A stretch of 64,000 bases of DNA from Candidatus Bathyarchaeia archaeon. Its GTDB lineage: Archaea > Thermoproteota > Bathyarchaeia > Bathyarchaeales > Bathycorpusculaceae. Below the pieces are notes generated by a model, which was not told where the DNA came from, made no database searches, and was given only the letters and a program-made list of their open reading frames with translations. The stretch lies in NCBI GenBank assembly GCA_049969855.1, contig JBMFOB010000001.1, positions 69,906 through 133,905 of the forward strand, given 5' to 3'. Positions 10,356 through 26,972 of the stretch are shown piece by piece (within the stretch, counting starts at the first letter, position 1; each line of letters starts with the position of its first letter). The position numbers and the translations under genes are program-made.

Positions 10356-10754
10356 CTAACCAGTTACGTTCTTGAGCATGCATTGGACTATGTTTTCGCA
10401 CATCATACATTCTTCAGGGATTTTCTCCTTCGTTTTACGTTGGCTGAGATATCCAAAATGGTGGGGGCATCCTTGTTTCTTCGGCACTTGTAATGTTTCT
10501 TTTCCTTTTTGAACATTTACCTCTTGAACTTTAACGTCTACTTCAACCTCTGGCTTAGGATTTGTTTCAGTTATGGCAGCTTTTTCCTCCACTGCGATTT
10601 CGGTTAAGCAGTAGGGGCATGCATCATAAATTCTTGCATGTCTTGCGTTTAAATTTTCAACCTTGATTGGCGCCGTGAACACTTTTCCGCATGATGGATT
10701 TGGGCAAGTATAGCTTTGATTCTTCATTGTCGCATCTTTATTTTTTGTGATCAT
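10356..10754 (-). CDS. Double Zn-finger hypothetical protein
   Basis: N-terminal CPNPSC...CPYC and C-terminal CPHHFGYL...CMMC...C joined by a low-complexity linker; start may be the later MKNQ. Confidence 0.75.
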   Translation of the reverse strand: MITKNKDATMKNQSYTCPNPSCGKVFTAPIKVENLNARHARIYDACPYCLTEIAVEEKAAITETNPKPEVEVDVKVQEVNVQKGKETLQVPKKQGCPHHFGYLSQRKTKEKIPEECMMCENIVQCMLKNVTG

Positions 10755-11012
10755 TTTGTGATCATTGACCCTCCTTTAAAATAGAATCGGATTCCGAGTT
10801 TATAGTGTTAATGAATCCAGAATTAATATCATGGATATCTGCCAACAATTAAATTGAAACTCATGGAGAAGCACCTCTTACGTTTGACCTTTAAACCCTA
10901 AACAACGGCATTATAATGTTTAATAGGTTTCCAACAAAGCTTACAGAAAATTCAGATTTTAAATTCATAACTGTTTTTAATTTTTCAAATTCTAACATTC
11001 GCCATACTAAAG

Positions 11013-20313: not shown

Positions 20314-20867
20314 GATAAACCACGTGCAATCAATCGCGCAGCCCGAATGGGTTCTGGAACTCTGCCACAAAAACACAAAGCCTGAATCATATTAGAAGCC
20401 CATTTAACGCTTGCACCCACTATTTCTACATATAATGGTGGTTCGCCGCTTCGAGTAATAATTTTGTGAATTGGGCCTAACTTTTGAAACACTTCCCAGC
20501 GCATTTCCCAGTCTTCAAAATGTTTTTTGAGGGCTTGCTTCACCGTTCGGTTATCAGGTTTTGTTCGGGATATTATGATAACTGGCTTTTTGAATTTTTC
20601 ATAAATTATTGTTGGATTGATGAGGTTAAAACCCGCAAAGGATACTCCAGCAAGCATAATAGCAGTAAACTCCCATGCTTTTAGGACCTCGGCGAGTTTT
20701 TCCGTCGCATCTAACCCATCAACAGTTATTTTTACGACTTTCACGTTTTCAATGCTGGCTTCTCTGAACAAAACTGCGGCAAGAAGTGCCTCTCGCGTTA
20801 TGCCTTTCTGGAAACTTCCATCTTCAACTCCTACTGTTAGCATGCTTTGAAAGGCTTTTTGCTTCAT
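20310..20867 (-). CDS. DUF99 family (endonuclease V-like) protein
   Basis: GVEDGSF, ITVDGLDAT, GVSFAGFN, VPEPIRAARLIA; overlaps the cdc6 3' end; start uncertain (20843-20897). Confidence 0.85.
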   Translation of the reverse strand: MKQKAFQSMLTVGVEDGSFQKGITREALLAAVLFREASIENVKVVKITVDGLDATEKLAEVLKAWEFTAIMLAGVSFAGFNLINPTIIYEKFKKPVIIISRTKPDNRTVKQALKKHFEDWEMRWEVFQKLGPIHKIITRSGEPPLYVEIVGASVKWASNMIQALCFCGRVPEPIRAARLIARGLS

Positions 20868-22068
20868 ATTCCACCAGACGCCCAAGCCTATTGTCACTAG
20901 CGAAGACGTCTCTAATAAGAGTGCGAGCTATTTCCAGCCTAATTTTTTTCGTTCTTCCATATCTTCCCATGCTTATAACCTTAGCATTTAACAATCCCAT
21001 CGAATCCAGCTCATTCACCAATGTGCTTAACCGACGCTGCGTTAAAGGTGTAACACTTAACTCCCCGCAAAGTTCAGCATAAACGTCATATATGTCGCCT
21101 GTGATGGCACTGTGAACATTCGCCCTATTCAAGTGATACACACTTAAAATCACAAGTTTTGAATGCAAGGTTAAATTTCTAAGAGCCTCAACAACACGGT
21201 TGTGTTCAATGTGTTTTTCAGCCTCTCGGACATGTTCTTCAGTCACAACACTTGCATCATTGCGCTCTGCAACCTCGCCAGCAACACGCAACAAATCCAA
21301 AGCCCGTCTTGCATCTCCATGTTCTGCAGCCGCCAAAGCAGCGCATAAACCCAAAGCAGCTTCAGACAAAGCCCCATCACAAAATGCCAATCGCGCCCGT
21401 TCCAACAGTATGTTGCCCAATTCACTTGCGTCGTAAGGCCTAAAAACAATTTCTTCCTCGCTGAGGGAGCTGAAAACACGTGGGTCAAGAAATTCCTTCA
21501 GCCGCAGGTCATTTGATATGCCCACTAGGGATACTTTGCTTTTGCATAAATTCTCATTTATTCTTGTCAATTCGTAAAGAAGCCGGTCTCCACGCGCTTT
21601 AACTAACGCGTCAATTTCATCTAAAACAACAATAAAAACAATTTTTAAAACATCCAAACCTGTTCTGAATCTATCAAAAACTTCGCCAACAGATAGCCCT
21701 GTGAAGGGAACATATACGCCTATGTTCTGGCATAAATTTGAAAAAACGCGATATTCAGACCCCGCCATGCGACAGTTCACATAGCAAAATCTTACAGGTG
21801 CATTAAACTCCTTTGCTTTGGCCTCAAGATGGCTTAAAACATATTTTGTCACTGCTGTTTTGCCTGTTCCAGTTTTTCCATATATAAAAACGTTAGAGCC
21901 TCTAGAACCTTTCAAAGCTGGGGCTACTGTCTCCCCTAGTTGTCTAATCTGTTCTTCTCGATGGGGCAGCTTCTCAGGTAAATAATCATGTCGTAATACT
22001 TCCCTATCTTTGAAGATTTTATTATTGTAAACGAATTTCTTGAATACTTCGTCAAGGATGTGGTTCAC
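20824..22068 (-). CDS. cdc6: Orc1/Cdc6 replication initiator
   Basis: YLPEKLPHRE, GKTGTGKT, VLDEID, HGDAR, C-terminal wHTH with GRYGRT. Confidence 0.96.
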   Translation of the reverse strand: MNHILDEVFKKFVYNNKIFKDREVLRHDYLPEKLPHREEQIRQLGETVAPALKGSRGSNVFIYGKTGTGKTAVTKYVLSHLEAKAKEFNAPVRFCYVNCRMAGSEYRVFSNLCQNIGVYVPFTGLSVGEVFDRFRTGLDVLKIVFIVVLDEIDALVKARGDRLLYELTRINENLCKSKVSLVGISNDLRLKEFLDPRVFSSLSEEEIVFRPYDASELGNILLERARLAFCDGALSEAALGLCAALAAAEHGDARRALDLLRVAGEVAERNDASVVTEEHVREAEKHIEHNRVVEALRNLTLHSKLVILSVYHLNRANVHSAITGDIYDVYAELCGELSVTPLTQRRLSTLVNELDSMGLLNAKVISMGRYGRTKKIRLEIARTLIRDVFASDNRLGRLVEYEAKSLSKHANSRS

Positions 22069-22098
22069 GTTAATTCCTCAGCAATTTTTAGTGGTAAC

Positions 22099-22118
22099 AC
22101 CCCATTTTCTAGTAGAGA
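22099..22118 (-). promoter_or_regulatory. ORB1 (degenerate), next to cdc6 start
   Basis: Minus strand TCTCTACTAGAAAATGGGGT. Confidence 0.65.
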
Positions 22119-22214
22119 AATAAGCTCTGTCATACAAAAAACTAAAGGCATAACATAAAAATCCTAAAAGAAGAAGAATTTGCATCACTTATTATTCTAT
22201 TGAATGTGAGACGC

Positions 22215-22236
22215 ACCCCACAATTTCTTTTGGAAC
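22215..22236 (-). promoter_or_regulatory. ORB2
   Basis: Minus strand GTTCCAAAAGAAATTGTGGGGT, matching TTCCAnnGGAAA..GGGG. Confidence 0.8.
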
Positions 22237-22392
22237 TCTGCAAGGTAATAACAAATCCTTTCTGATTTCTGCTTTACAGAAATATACTCTGAAAGGTTAA
22301 AACCACCAAAGCTACTTTAATGTTTACTGTAAAAGATTTTTGACAATTAACTAAAAAATATGCAAAAGTAAAGTGTTTGAGATGAGCAGAAT

Positions 22393-22414
22393 CTTCCAAA
22401 GGAAATGAAGGGGT
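22393..22414 (+). promoter_or_regulatory. ORB3
   Basis: CTTCCAAAGGAAATGAAGGGGT. Confidence 0.85.
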
Positions 22415-22645
22415 GCCGCTACATGATAACTTTGATATAAACGGTAGCAATTGATTTTTCTTTTTATTTTTATTTTCTACCTGACCAATGTAGAAGTTCT
22501 AAATAGTTCTCCAATAAACAATTTGCTTCCTTCATTTTTGTTCACAATTTGTAAACACCTTGTGAAATTGACTTAACAAAGCCTCTTTTCCAACTCCGCT
22601 TTCCCTAATATTGACTTTTTCTTGTCTCTTTTCTGTAAAATAGCC

Positions 22646-22667
22646 ACCCCTTCTCTTCTACTGGAAA
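22646..22667 (-). promoter_or_regulatory. ORB4
   Basis: Minus strand TTTCCAGTAGAAGAGAAGGGGT; inverted relative to ORB3. Confidence 0.8.
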
Positions 22668-22866
22668 TAAGCATTGCTTTAGTTCTCGTTTTCCTTTTTC
22701 TTTTTAGAAGAAGTGTGAAGTCTGTAAAAACAAAAGCTTTAAAAATTCTCCTTATTTTCCTTTTTTCTACCCTTAATGCCAATTTTCTTTCCAGCATTTT
22801 TACCATAACAGCTATAACTTGTGAACTGTAAAATTGTGAAATACCTTAAGCAGGTGTACACCGCAG

Positions 22867-23298
22867 ATGCCCGCTAAAAAGATGCGTGTTGAACTGTTCG
22901 ATAGTGAAGGCAATAAATATACTGTGTCCTTTGAAGGGCAAATAACCAGAGAAAAAGCTCTTCGCTTATTGGACATGGTGGAACTTTTAGGCGGAGTATC
23001 TGCGGGTGAGGGAAATCCAGAAAGTAATAACCCAGCTGTCGCAAATCAACTTGATAAGTACAGCAAGGTTCGAATGATAATTCAGAAACATTTTCCGTTG
23101 GTTTGGTTTTCTTCACGGGATGTCCAACTGGTTTATGAGCAAGAGCTAAAGGAACCAATAAGCCTAAGCACTGTGGCAACATACCTTTACAGAATGGCGA
23201 GTAAGGGTATGCTTTCTAAAGCGGGGAATTCCAATCGTTTGAAATATAGATTTGCGCCAAGTTATCCGCAATTAGCACCTAAACAACAAATGCCATGA
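22867..23298 (+). CDS. Origin-adjacent hypothetical protein with C-terminal winged helix
   Basis: Small N-terminal alpha/beta domain, linker, then WFSSRDVQ...ISLSTVATYLYRMASKGML...KYRF wHTH pattern. Confidence 0.8.
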   Translation: MPAKKMRVELFDSEGNKYTVSFEGQITREKALRLLDMVELLGGVSAGEGNPESNNPAVANQLDKYSKVRMIIQKHFPLVWFSSRDVQLVYEQELKEPISLSTVATYLYRMASKGMLSKAGNSNRLKYRFAPSYPQLAPKQQMP

Positions 23299-23327: not shown

Positions 23328-24047
23328 TTATAGGGCTTCGCTTTCCTTCTTTTTCAAAAGATTTTCCATTTCCTTCTTCACATTATACTTAAAAGGAATT
23401 TTGCTCGTATCCCTCTCCAAGTAACCCCCCTCATAAAGCTTCTTCATCAAACGAGCCGTATGTTCCCGGCTGAGTTTAATGCGATCTTTTATCTCAGGCG
23501 CAGTTTTAGGACCTTCTGAAGCCAACATTTCCAAGACGGACAATTCGGTTTCTGTGAGTGGGGCTAAGGCTTTCTCTCTTTTTATGGGTATTACCGCTTC
23601 GATTTTTGCCTCTGGAACCATGGAGAATTGACGTGTTTGTTCTTCCATTTCGGAAACTTTTGAAGCTAACTTTTCATGCGCTGTGGAAAGGGCACTTACT
23701 TTCTCGTCCACTTCACCAAGTTTTGCTGATATCCTCTCTCTATGCTCCAAAACTTCAGTAAGCTTTCCCTCTAAAGAATGCACTATTTTATGGGTTTCTT
23801 CCGCTTTGTCCAGAGCCTTTTCACTTTTTGAAGAAATTGCCTCGACTTTATAAGCAATTAACTCCGTCCTTTCCGCCTCCTGCCTTAACTGTCTATTAAA
23901 ACTCAAAACAATGTCACCGATTATTTCCTTACTCTTCTCGTATTCCCTTCTAACTTTTTGCAGTTGCCTATAATACTCAAAAGCGGCACAAGCGGTTACG
24001 ACAAGTAAACTCCCAGCAATAATCAAAACTTCATCCAAATGAAACAC
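23328..24047 (-). CDS. Membrane-anchored coiled-coil winged-helix protein
   Basis: N-terminal hydrophobic helix, ~110-aa heptad-rich region, C-terminal LTETELSVLEML...TAPEIK..LSREHTARLMKKLYEGGYLER wHTH. Confidence 0.82.
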   Translation of the reverse strand: MFHLDEVLIIAGSLLVVTACAAFEYYRQLQKVRREYEKSKEIIGDIVLSFNRQLRQEAERTELIAYKVEAISSKSEKALDKAEETHKIVHSLEGKLTEVLEHRERISAKLGEVDEKVSALSTAHEKLASKVSEMEEQTRQFSMVPEAKIEAVIPIKREKALAPLTETELSVLEMLASEGPKTAPEIKDRIKLSREHTARLMKKLYEGGYLERDTSKIPFKYNVKKEMENLLKKKESEAL

Positions 24048-24050
24048 CTC

Positions 24051-24323
24051 TGTGATTCACCTGTGATTACGTTTACTTTAAACACGTTACATCACACATC
24101 ACAATTCTAACATAGAAGATTTAAAGATTACGGTAAAAGCATGGCTTCTAAGGAACAATGACGTCACACGTCACAGCCACAAATATGCTTACGCTCAAAC
24201 TAGCAACATTGCCTGAAAAAGGTTACTTTTGAACTATTTTTGACTTTTCGCCTTATTTTTGCTCCAGATAGATAATGCATTTAATGCTTTTATTTAGGGT
24301 ATGATGTGATTTGTGACGTCACA
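24051..24323. repeat. TGTGA/TCACA repeat array
   Basis: Nine copies, at 24051, 24062, 24092, 24099, 24164, 24171, 24305, 24312 and 24319; includes the perfect palindrome TGTGACGTCACA (24312-24323). Confidence 0.8.
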
Positions 24324-24798
24324 CGATGCCTTCTGATGGGTTTGAAAGCTTTTTCAAGCTGTTTTCCAGCTCCTCTCTAACCATTTTTATAAGTTTTAGG
24401 TGTTCACCGAGGTCTTCGCTTTTGTTTGGTATGTTTTTGTATGCCTCCATAAAGTCGTGCAATTTGTTGGCTATTTCTAGGTACGGGTCAAGTGTCGTGT
24501 CTTCGAACACTCCTAAGTATCCTAAAAGCAGTATAGTGTATATTGATTTTATGACGTTTTCTTTTGCTTGTTTTAATGTTCTGTTAAAGGCTCCGCGGCT
24601 TATTTTTGCCTTTGATAACCGTAATCTGGCTTTTTCATCGTATTTTAGCGGTTTACCCGAAATATTTTCAGCCAATATGTCAATAAGCAATGTTTCAAGC
24701 TGAGTTTTTGTTAATTGACTATTTTTAGTAAGCATTTTTACAATAGGGTCATTTAATGAGCTTGTTAACCACACTTGGACGTTTTCTTTAAGCTTCAA
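24319..24798 (-). CDS. Hypothetical protein with Tfx/sigma-region-4-like HTH
   Basis: SQLTKTQLETL...ISRGAFNRTLKQAKENVIKSIYT resembles the Tfx HTH (by eye); TTG start after GGAG. Confidence 0.7.
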   Translation of the reverse strand: MKLKENVQVWLTSSLNDPIVKMLTKNSQLTKTQLETLLIDILAENISGKPLKYDEKARLRLSKAKISRGAFNRTLKQAKENVIKSIYTILLLGYLGVFEDTTLDPYLEIANKLHDFMEAYKNIPNKSEDLGEHLKLIKMVREELENSLKKLSNPSEGIV

Positions 24799-24935
24799 AC
24801 TTTTCTCTCCACGCAGCTTCTTAAATGTATACACTTTTGTATACGGGTCTCCTTTTAAAACTATCGAATATCATGACAAAAATCACGTTTTACCAACACA
24901 AACATTTTATGCTAAAGAGAACAGTGTAGGATGAG

Positions 24936-26123: not shown

Positions 26124-26972
26124 TTACAAGTTTTCTGCGTGTTTTTTTAGTTCATCGAAAAGTTCTGGGCGCAAATCCCTAAGTGTGGGAACAAAAGTTT
26201 CTATGGGTTTTATGTCCGCATAATCTACATCACACATCACAATGTGCTCCTCATCATATTTTGCTTGAGCTAAAACTTTTCCATTAGGTCCCACAAGTCT
26301 GCTTCCTCCCCAAAACTGTAACCCATCTTCTATGCCGACAAGGTTAACATAAGCCAAGAAAGCCGTGTTTTCTATAGCCCTTGCCACTGTTAACACTTCA
26401 AAAAATGCCTTTCTGACCGCTGGAGACGCAGAGATGCAAACTATCAATTGGGCCCCTTTTAATCGTGTCAGTCGGCTTACTTCTGGGAAAAATATATCAT
26501 AGCATATGATTAAGCCTATTTTTCCAATTTTTGTTTCAAATGCTGTTGCGTGATATCCTGCACGGAAATATCTCTTCTCTTCAAAGACGCTGTGAGTTGG
26601 AAGATACATCTTTCTATATTTCCCTATGAAACCCTCGGGACCTACGAGAACTGCTGTGTTATAAAGTGTAGCTTTGGTCTTTTCGCTCAATTCTGGCATG
26701 CCGAAAATGATGTAGGTGTTTGTTTTTCTGGCTATGTCTTCCATGGCTTTTACTGAAGGTCCAGGCATTGTCTCTGCTAACTCGTATATTTGATCTCTAA
26801 CTACATAGCCTGTCAGTGAAAGTTCTGGAAAAATTACAAGGTCTGCGCCTTGTTTTTTAGCTTTATTTGTGATTTTTTCCATTTTCTTTATGTTTTCTTT
26901 TTTGTCTCCGCGTTTGCAGCTGATCTGTGCTAGGGCAAGTTTAATTTTGTCTTTCATTTTTGCTGCTTCCAT
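26124..26972 (-). CDS. Carbon-nitrogen hydrolase (nitrilase superfamily)
   Basis: Catalytic E (FPEL), K (YRKMYL), C (ICYD). Confidence 0.9.
   Translation of the reverse strand: MEAAKMKDKIKLALAQISCKRGDKKENIKKMEKITNKAKKQGADLVIFPELSLTGYVVRDQIYELAETMPGPSVKAMEDIARKTNTYIIFGMPELSEKTKATLYNTAVLVGPEGFIGKYRKMYLPTHSVFEEKRYFRAGYHATAFETKIGKIGLIICYDIFFPEVSRLTRLKGAQLIVCISASPAVRKAFFEVLTVARAIENTAFLAYVNLVGIEDGLQFWGGSRLVGPNGKVLAQAKYDEEHIVMCDVDYADIKPIETFVPTLRDLRPELFDELKKHAENL

Follow-up and report, generated by a model that had tools for sequence, protein, structure and literature searches.

A membrane-anchored coiled-coil winged-helix protein with a private box array beside a replication origin in Bathyarchaeia, a candidate tether of origin-flanking DNA

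The described system that comes closest to the one presented here is RicO of Staphylococcus aureus, which has, besides its DNA-binding domain, a coiled coil and a helix that binds the membrane, and which acts at specific origin-proximal sites (bioRxiv 10.64898/2026.03.06.710092). For archaea, a 2024 review names only SegA/SegB in chromosome segregation, with a mechanism that is not understood (PMC7617429), and how chromosomes are positioned and separated in archaea beyond Sulfolobus is the open question on which the locus analyzed here bears. This locus is found in a stretch of 64,000 nucleotides from a Candidatus Bathyarchaeia archaeon (assembly GCA_049969855.1, contig JBMFOB010000001.1, positions 69,906 to 133,905), hereafter the window, whose own numbering is used throughout. 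We have studied a gene on its reverse strand (23328..24047, 239 aa from a GTG) that codes for a protein with a predicted membrane anchor, a coiled coil and a domain of the winged helix-turn-helix type (wHTH), referred to below as the anchored protein. The gene is located next to a replication origin and carries an array of short boxes at its own promoter. The reading that we favor, to which we would give a probability of about 0.45, is that of a self-regulating membrane-anchored DNA-binding protein that holds the origin-flanking DNA at the membrane.

Several other kinds of proteins are relevant for the comparison. In ToxR and CadC the chain begins with a wHTH of the OmpR type, crosses the membrane as a helix and ends in a periplasmic sensor. 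The members of the MarR family are soluble dimers of ~140–150 aa, in which the dimer interface is built from the helices at the two ends of the chain, on either side of the wHTH. ParR with its parC site and AspA of pNOB8 are centromere-binding proteins that autoregulate through their own centromere and work together with a partition ATPase or filament. Among archaeal systems, ArnR and ArnR1 of Sulfolobus acidocaldarius are membrane-bound one-component DNA-binding proteins, of which ArnR, a regulator of archaellum and pilus genes, starts with an HTH, continues with a HAMP-like and a sensing domain and ends in two membrane helices (PMC6396743). TrmB proteins are soluble, with an N-terminal wHTH and mostly a C-terminal sugar-binding domain; in TrmBL1/Tgr a coiled-coil helix adjoining the wHTH serves for dimerization, the half-site is TATCAC/GTGATA, the sites are located upstream of the transcription factor B recognition element (BRE)/TATA or at +1, and autoregulation has been reported (PMC4158304). 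Finally UBP, which goes with the ucm motif of Sulfolobales origins, is nucleoid-associated and soluble, has hundreds of sites and makes contact with MCM (PMC12141716).

The anatomy and topology of the anchored protein, as described in this and the next paragraph, are very probably correct. Its start is probably the TTG at 24038, three codons past the GTG, giving 236 aa, since an AGAGGTG Shine-Dalgarno-like run overlaps the GTG, 6 nt ahead of the TTG, and the gene calls for homologues in other genomes also start at TTG and give 236 aa. For the comparisons we have used 81 aligned close homologues, 120 sequences from Nitrosopumilaceae, 17 distant loci and 71 Bathyarchaeia loci (loci are numbered with L, and families are given as f-numbers). 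A single membrane helix is predicted at residues 7–26 (23970..24029, reverse strand) from the hydrophobicity of the homologues, and is helical in an AlphaFold2 model built from the alignment (mean predicted local distance difference test, pLDDT, 91.1). A 19-residue Kyte-Doolittle window of at least 1.6 was present in 81/81 aligned homologues, down to 24% identity, and in every one of them the number of K+R was higher after the helix than before it, with a mean net charge of −1.0 before and +2.2 after. The median length of the flank outside the membrane was 4 aa; for the protein of the window it would be about 3–6 residues and, with the start probably at 24038, only ~3. These features point to an N-out/C-in anchor rather than a cleaved signal, given an acidic n-region, a hydrophobic run of 20 aa, and the lack of conservation of the A-C-A and the Cys. 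The lipobox-like V-T-A-C and the A-C-A signal-peptidase-like site found within the anchor were both rejected for this lack of conservation in the alignment.

Continuous with the membrane helix, residues 27–141 (23625..23969, reverse strand) form a heptad coiled-coil helix, delimited by its periodicity and by the model. The power of the 3.5-residue hydrophobic periodicity over residues 27–150 was 2.73, versus 0.23 ± 0.23 in shuffled sequences (0/2000 reached 2.73), a single heptad register runs from about residue 34 to 117, and the model gives one unbroken helix for residues 3–141. The cytoplasmic rod of ~115 residues would measure, by simple arithmetic, ~17 nm if straight, and the juxtamembrane part of the segment carries the conserved motif YY..(7)..EY..AK..V.DI..SF. 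A flexible linker in the model (residues 142–157, 23577..23624, reverse strand; pLDDT <50 for 142–156) leads to a MarR/TrmB-type winged helix (residues 158–238, 23334..23576, reverse strand), supported by Pfam, the alignment, the model and Foldseek. The Pfam scores were 30.2 bits for MarR (PF01047, cut-off 24.6; residues 164–215, profile positions 1–52 of 59) and 28.1 bits for TrmB (PF01978, cut-off 25.6; residues 164–223). The recognition helix corresponds to residues 194–206, with R194, H196 and R199 invariant, and R212, P218 and Y221 are invariant in the wing. With Foldseek, the winged helix of the model matched MarR/ArsR-type structures, some of them solved on DNA, with E values of 2e-4 to 2e-3; outside the wHTH the root-mean-square deviation to full MarR chains was 15–17 Å, and only one short helix follows the wHTH. 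Neither an effector domain nor a HAMP or sensor domain appeared in the Pfam scan or in the model, and Trans_reg_C was not among the best 25 of the 34 Pfam matches. Against PDB sequences, a profile of the whole protein retrieved only coiled-coil look-alikes (MCP, myosin, tropomyosin) and one of the wHTH alone gave weak matches to MarR and ST1889; the database names of the homologues are generic ('MarR family', 'winged helix DNA-binding protein'). Thus, the hydrophobic helix with almost no external domain, the charged heptad segment and the C-terminal wHTH that an initial annotation had recognized in the sequence were all confirmed, and its question of an anchor or a cleaved signal was answered in favor of the anchor.

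The 270 bp between the start of the gene and the stop codon of p171, the gene upstream, were among the most conserved non-coding stretches in the 71 loci. They contain four sets of boxes built on TGTGA(T/C), about 9 boxes in 270 bp (24051–24323). Set A, TGTGATTTGTGACGTCACA (24305..24323, forward strand), is inverted with respect to B and C and overlaps the stop codon of p171. Set B, TGTGACGTGTGACGTCAT (24158..24175, reverse strand), is located ~48 bp upstream of a conserved element, CTTTAAAT on the strand of the gene (24120..24127, reverse strand), that resembles a TATA box and probably works as one. Set C, TGTGATGTGTGAT (24091..24103, reverse strand), lies 20–21 bp downstream of this element, and set D, two ATCACA boxes 11 bp apart on the strand of the gene (24051..24067, reverse strand), comes just before the ribosome-binding site. 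The spacing between B and C was 66–73 bp in 53/54 loci, and that between the TTAAR of the TATA-like element and C was 20–21 bp in 42/54. With this last distance set C would be placed where an archaeal transcript is expected to start and, judging from what is generally known of archaeal promoters, set B where upstream activating or cooperative sites sit. A scan for sigma-70 promoters and terminators was set aside as meaningless for an archaeon.

The boxes might instead be the sites of another factor, or elements of an RNA leader in which set C pairs with set D and hides the ribosome-binding site. TGTGAT and ATCACA are complementary, and folding of the leaders from 30 loci gave a mean z of −1.96 relative to mononucleotide shuffles. 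However, sets A and B are upstream of the TATA-like element and so outside the transcript, and the distances between boxes (10–11 nt in set D, 7 nt in set C) give no simple stem and fit one face of the DNA helix. The boxes are moreover invariant, leaving no covariation to be read, and RNAalifold gave no structure, the alignment being poor. This is the least probable of the explanations that we have weighed.

The double box TGTGAYNTGTGAY is nearly exclusive to the locus of the anchored gene. It has 4 copies in the whole assembly (1,283,867 bp), 3 of them in the 270 bp upstream of the gene. In the 71 related loci (1.30 Mb) we found 193 matches, 179 within 400 bp upstream of the orthologue and 0 on the origin side, and in five other Bathyarchaeia genomes (1.5–2.9 Mb) 15 of the 16 matches were within the same distance upstream of the orthologue, where a control pattern gave 0–1 matches per genome. 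The same kind of array accompanies the gene in Nitrosopumilaceae: in 30/30 loci there are TGTGAT repeats at the p171 stop, more TGTGA boxes, and ATCAC-N5-ATCAC before the start of the orthologue, the TGTGAT/ATCAC boxes reaching 37.9 per kb upstream of the orthologue vs 5.0 per kb. In one distant locus (L117, family f23) such boxes precede an operon of p171 and the anchored gene. Four extra ATCAC-N5-ATCAC matches inspected in Nitrosopumilus genomes were all inside coding sequences, and no regulon was seen among them. As for the fourth double box of the assembly, it is a 17-nt copy of box set C (ATTGTGATGTGTGATGTA) at about 26229–26245 of the window, within a nitrilase-family gene, where it recurs in only 4/71 loci, and we have taken it as a chance occurrence in coding sequence. 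A match at 10762 was also discarded; there, positions 10740–10765 hold a small tandem duplication of ATGATCACAAA at the start codon of a small open reading frame (10356–10754, reverse strand).

This distribution bears directly on the possibility that the protein is an ordinary transmembrane one-component regulator, acting on its own gene and perhaps on a handful of others that carry single weak boxes, with a cue sensed in the bilayer or by the juxtamembrane segment, and with tethering as a by-product. Such a protein would not be exceptional, since a census counts 1,384 archaeal DNA-binding proteins with membrane helices in 367/404 species, and 56% of all such proteins, bacterial and archaeal together, are single-pass (PMC10269533). 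One box set over the start site and another upstream of the TATA element are classic operator positions, and the juxtamembrane stretch is the second-best conserved part of the protein (39% identity, versus 61% for the wHTH and 21% for the rod). GGGPS, the enzyme of the first committed step of archaeal lipid synthesis, is in addition encoded by a conserved neighbor that in Nitrosopumilaceae directly adjoins p171. On the other hand, the six Bathyarchaeia genomes contained no other strong double-box site, no intergenic second site appeared among the Nitrosopumilus matches inspected, and a regulator with only itself as a strong target has no output. A sensor domain is also lacking, and a search for longer, fused forms gave none at E 1e-10 or better, although this is weak evidence. 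All considered, a purely regulatory role seems unlikely to us, if by no means far-fetched.

The origin lies on the other side of the gene. The Orc1/Cdc6 initiator gene (20824..22068, reverse strand, Pfam scan) is followed in the window by an AT-rich 800-bp spacer (22069..22866) that we identify as the replication-origin region by its four ORB-like elements (22098–22110, 22214–22228, 22401–22415 and 22645–22659, the last being ORB4) and by the GC skew, the cumulative minimum of which falls in this spacer. ORB elements are the sites of Orc1/Cdc6. Between ORB3/ORB4 and the start of p143, the gene that separates the origin from the anchored gene, there are five TGTGAA/TTCACA boxes (22542, 22561, 22714, 22820 and 22835). 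The genes for the small subunit of PolD and for an Endo_dU family endonuclease come before Cdc6. The initial annotation had placed the anchored gene less than 1 kb from ORB4, and this holds for its 3' end, with 669 bp from the stop codon; the GTG start, however, is 1388 bp away with p143 in between, and the box array is at 1.4–1.7 kb.

The boxes of the origin and those of the gene are written in different dialects. TGTGA-core boxes are enriched at Bathyarchaeia origins (8.4 per kb vs 2.4 per kb overall), mostly within 400 bp of the start of p143, and their sixth base was A (TGTGAA) in 90% of 445 boxes from 66 origins, versus C or T in 95% and A in 2% of the boxes at the promoter of the anchored gene. 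Correspondingly, TGTGAY has 0 matches in the origin of the window and 0.56 per kb at the origin across 65 loci, vs 27 per kb upstream of the gene. In Nitrosopumilaceae the origin shows 9.6 GTTAAC per kb (120/122 of the copies in those loci) and 0.1 TGTGAY per kb. These figures speak against the version implied by the initial annotation, in which the wHTH would bind the ORB or origin array itself and tether the origin directly. The five-base core is shared by both kinds of boxes, making cross-binding conceivable, and the gene is adjacent to the origin in both Bathyarchaeia and Nitrosopumilaceae. But the sixth base differs, the origin of Nitrosopumilaceae has changed its motif with the recognition helix unchanged, and nothing links the anchored protein to the ORB elements themselves, so that we regard direct tethering at the origin array as highly improbable. 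What travels with the protein is instead the private TGTGAY array at its own gene.

We consider it probable, from the sequence patterns, that the anchored protein is the reader of these TGTGAY boxes, because the wHTH is its best-conserved part, with invariant residues in the recognition helix and the wing, because the boxes follow the protein to Nitrosopumilaceae and to L117, and because they and the recognition helix (in the Nitrosopumilaceae orthologue, SREHTSRLMKKL) stay the same when the origin motif changes from TGTGAA to GTTAAC. The origin boxes interleaved with the ORBs are probably read by p143 (TGTGAA, with GTTAAC in Nitrosopumilaceae), which is only 27–37% identical between Bathyarchaeia and Nitrosopumilaceae. 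On the simplest reading, the origin boxes would belong to p143 and the TGTGAY boxes to the anchored protein. TrmB-family wHTH proteins are described as reading TATCAC-N5-GTGATA (PMC4158304), the half-site of which fits as a precedent for ATCAC/GTGAT boxes and proves nothing. The comparison of the anchored-protein family with p143 by hhalign gave a probability of 0.9%, and therefore the two wHTH proteins are not demonstrably paralogues.

In the mechanism that we propose, the anchored protein would be located in the cytoplasmic membrane with its few N-terminal residues (about 3–6) outside, and its ~17 nm coiled-coil rod, presumably a parallel dimer, would extend into the cytoplasm and bear, on the flexible linker at its end, the MarR/TrmB-type winged helix. 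This domain would read boxes of the GTGAT/ATCAC type, the only strong cluster of which in the genome is formed by sets A–D, bracketing the TATA element and the start site of the gene itself. With box C over the start site, the protein would adjust its own amount, and the bound locus, 1.4–1.7 kb from the ORB cluster, would be held at the membrane because the protein cannot leave it. With the sites beside the gene, the C-terminal wHTH could capture them in cis when the N-terminal anchor has already been inserted co-translationally, and we speculate that capture during coupled transcription, translation and insertion solves the search problem of a membrane-bound reader. Pinning of the origin-flanking DNA, with p143 (on the TGTGAA boxes) and p171 as partners, would then be the selected function. 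We infer this chain of box binding, dimerization, autoregulation and tethering from the anatomy, the exclusivity of the box array and the gene order. A link between membrane and DNA through the anchored protein is plausible; that tethering is the role for which it was selected we propose only tentatively.

Four considerations incline us towards the tether. The lack of any other strong site in six Bathyarchaeia genomes would leave a purely regulatory protein without output; none of the 81 and 120 homologues from the two large groups lacks the anchor; both Bathyarchaeia and Nitrosopumilaceae have retained the site next to the origin; and RicO, a bacterial protein with the same three functional parts, has been shown to anchor origins. 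The observations that weigh against it are also numerous. Simple autoregulation, with no need of tethering, would by itself place boxes over a promoter, and in archaea the promoter of a regulator gene often carries several boxes for its own product. There is one box cluster per genome, versus nine sites over 700 kb for RicO. The boxes could be read by p171 or by an unlinked factor, and a wHTH dimer would not usually be expected on direct repeats with a distance of 7 bp. NadE, GGGPS and other neighbors are kept in 65–66/71 loci, and therefore the synteny within Bathyarchaeia by itself reflects general collinearity. An insertion of ~2.6 kb separates p143 from the anchored gene in 19/69 loci, and in eight distant loci (L116–L123) Cdc6 was within about 4 kb in only 1/8.

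The structure of the protein itself is also less constant than a tether of fixed dimensions might suggest. The length of the spacer is not conserved, with 119–151 aa in Bathyarchaeia and 90–96 aa in Nitrosopumilaceae, and L116 (family f28) has the anchor with almost no rod, L117 and L122 (f23) having only a short spacer. Of the dimeric stalk imagined by the initial annotation there remains, then, a long rod between the membrane and the wHTH in the model, and not a conserved rigid stalk. The same annotation had made its proposal depend on the N-terminus being kept in orthologues. The anchor was indeed found in 81/81 aligned and 120/120 Nitrosopumilaceae homologues, but it is missing in 5/17 distant loci (L077, L118, L119, L121 and L123), whose proteins begin with a coiled coil and share the recognition helix AREH.AR..KKL with the anchored ones. 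With these anchor-less loci, and with Cdc6 absent nearby, neither the anchor nor the origin neighborhood is universal to the wider family. The wHTH together with its partners forms the old core; anchor, rod and origin position characterize a large subset, to which the genome of the window belongs. In two loci (L078, at 2247–2354, and L079) a membrane helix is found in frame but upstream of any ATG, GTG or TTG, which suggests unusual start codons or sequencing errors.

The family is widespread within its groups. Full-length matches were present in 25/25 genomes sampled from the family to which the window belongs, and the anchored protein was found in 55/55 sampled genomes of Nitrosopumilaceae. 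With this query there were no matches in Sulfolobus-like and several other families of the phylum (f16 0/16, f24 0/23, f25 0/12, f30 0/15), nor did tblastn of the family against plasmids and phages give any. We found no description of the anchored-protein family in the literature, with the proviso that the supplements of the regulator census (PMC10269533) may list members.

The two partners have been mentioned already. p143 (22867..23298, forward strand), the convergent neighbor, has a small N-terminal domain plus a BlaI/Penicillinase_R-type wHTH, detected in 24/26 members scanned. p171 (24319..24834, reverse strand) is a conserved upstream partner without recognizable family or fold, and profiles of both proteins against PDB sequences gave nothing below E 0.07. 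Of the 71 Bathyarchaeia loci, 70 contain p171, 69 contain p143 and 66 contain Cdc6, and the misses are mostly at contig ends. The motif GTATACAA was found in the 200 bp upstream of p171 in 62/70 loci, and therefore p171 has a private motif of its own. At the start of p171 in the window, two GTATAC palindromes are located 12 bp apart (24827–24844). The ~2.6 kb insertion mentioned above is absent from the window. In the loci that have it the anchored gene stays with p171 and the boxes, and in one of them (L007, 5691–8259) it codes for a HerA-domain ATPase (PF01935, E 6.8e-13) together with a weak NurA-like match (E 5e-4, below the cut-off).

Gene order and orientations are unchanged in Nitrosopumilaceae (GGGPS, p171, anchored gene, p143, ORB-bearing spacer and Cdc6), with the trio formed by p171, the anchored gene and p143 complete in 30/30 loci and Cdc6 in 26/30, the other 4 being cut at contig ends. 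The arrangement is also found in other families (L076, L078, L080 and L120). This recurrence goes beyond collinearity. All three genes of the trio are tightly packed and co-directional in L116, and p171 and the anchored gene are separated by 1 bp or overlap, as in an operon, in L117 and L122. Another feature of Nitrosopumilaceae (L073–L076, L082–L111) is that GGGPS directly adjoins p171, divergently oriented, whereas in Bathyarchaeia it is 4–5 kb away; a link of the trio to membrane lipid synthesis through GGGPS is possible.

The constancy of p171 raises the question of whether the anchored protein might be a parking place at the membrane for p171 (or p143), or a switch freed by intramembrane proteolysis in the manner of anti-sigma factors or SREBP. 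p171 is directly upstream in 70/71 loci, within 1 bp of the gene or overlapping it in the two operon-like cases above, and its profile matched in the families with the anchored form (f1 6/6, f15 20/20, f23 7/7, f28 7/7), with no match in two sampled anchor-less ones (f21 0/15 and f36 0/2; f44, f48 and f49 were not itemized). This phyletic match is a lead only, since the genomes are related and the samples not independent, and p171 has no recognizable family or fold. The wHTH, for its part, retains every hallmark of a DNA reader and comes with a box array of its own. We therefore think that parking or release is improbable, and retain the membrane-anchored, self-regulating holder of origin-flanking DNA as the favored reading.

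At its widest, the idea would be that the trio is an archaeal origin-anchoring device, kept since before the split between Bathyarchaeia and the ammonia-oxidizing Nitrososphaeria, in which the anchored protein captures a private centromere-like array in cis and, with p143 and p171, fixes each newly replicated origin region to the membrane. In this full form the proposal is possible but doubtful. If true, it would be a physical realization in archaea of the replicon-attachment idea of Jacob, Brenner and Cuzin. Given its anatomy, if the protein binds a specific origin-flanking site at all, that site is necessarily linked to the membrane. This also bears on how membrane-bound DNA-binding proteins search for their targets, as the target may sit beside their own gene. 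Should the tethering role be wrong, the locus would still be a deeply conserved regulator with a private operator set. The Nitrosopumilaceae include cultured ammonia oxidizers.

Coming back to the known systems, the anchored protein falls within the wide class of transmembrane regulators that bind DNA, defined in the census by a predicted DNA-binding domain and at least one predicted membrane helix (PMC10269533), and departs from the defining architecture of each of the better known types. Its wHTH is of MarR type, in a chain where a membrane helix and a 115-residue rod take the place of the soluble dimer with flanking helices. The wHTH is equally of TrmB type, and the similarity with TrmBL1/Tgr extends to a coiled coil adjoining the wHTH, the similar half-site, the position of the putative sites around the promoter and, as we propose, autoregulation (PMC4158304), but it differs from TrmB proteins in being predicted as membrane-bound, in having the wHTH C-terminal, after the coiled coil, and in having no sugar-binding domain. 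Like ToxR and CadC, it is a single-pass membrane protein whose cytoplasmic winged helix would have to find DNA from the membrane, a situation treated in the same census (PMC10269533), and yet the order of the domains is reversed, the wHTH is of MarR/TrmB type and not more than 3–6 residues are outside, with no periplasmic sensor; the poor fit to this type noted by the initial annotation was thus correct. With ArnR and ArnR1 it shares being an archaeal membrane-bound DNA-binding protein (PMC6396743). It has, however, one N-terminal helix, no sensing domain, a C-terminal wHTH and only its own gene as the target found, an architecture that is not that of ArnR.

The functional comparisons lead elsewhere. 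UBP is similar as a non-initiator DNA-binding protein with a motif at archaeal origins, but it is soluble, with hundreds of sites and a contact with MCM (PMC12141716), and it bears more closely on p143 and the TGTGAA boxes than on the anchored protein. With ParR and AspA the resemblance is that a repeat array overlaps the promoter of the gene of its putative binder and could double as a DNA handle; the difference is that the trio includes no partition ATPase or filament gene and that the family was not found on plasmids or phages. With RicO the likeness covers the sequence-specific DNA-binding domain, the coiled coil and the membrane element, here combined in one protein by prediction, and the proposal that origin DNA is held at the membrane; the specific sites of RicO are near the origin (bioRxiv 10.64898/2026.03.06.710092). 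Here the putative sites are one private 270-bp cluster at 1.4–1.7 kb from ORB4, with the anchored protein as the probable binder, at the promoter of the gene itself instead of spread over the chromosome as the nine of RicO, and the adjacency to the origin is not kept in 7/8 loci of other families. RicO is bacterial and of unrelated sequence, with the reverse order (N-terminal DNA-binding domain, C-terminal amphipathic helix) and a peripheral rather than integral association with the membrane, and it has been tested in vivo, the anchored protein being known from sequence and prediction. By analogy, the anchored protein would work most like RicO and the centromere-binding autoregulators, being unrelated to them.

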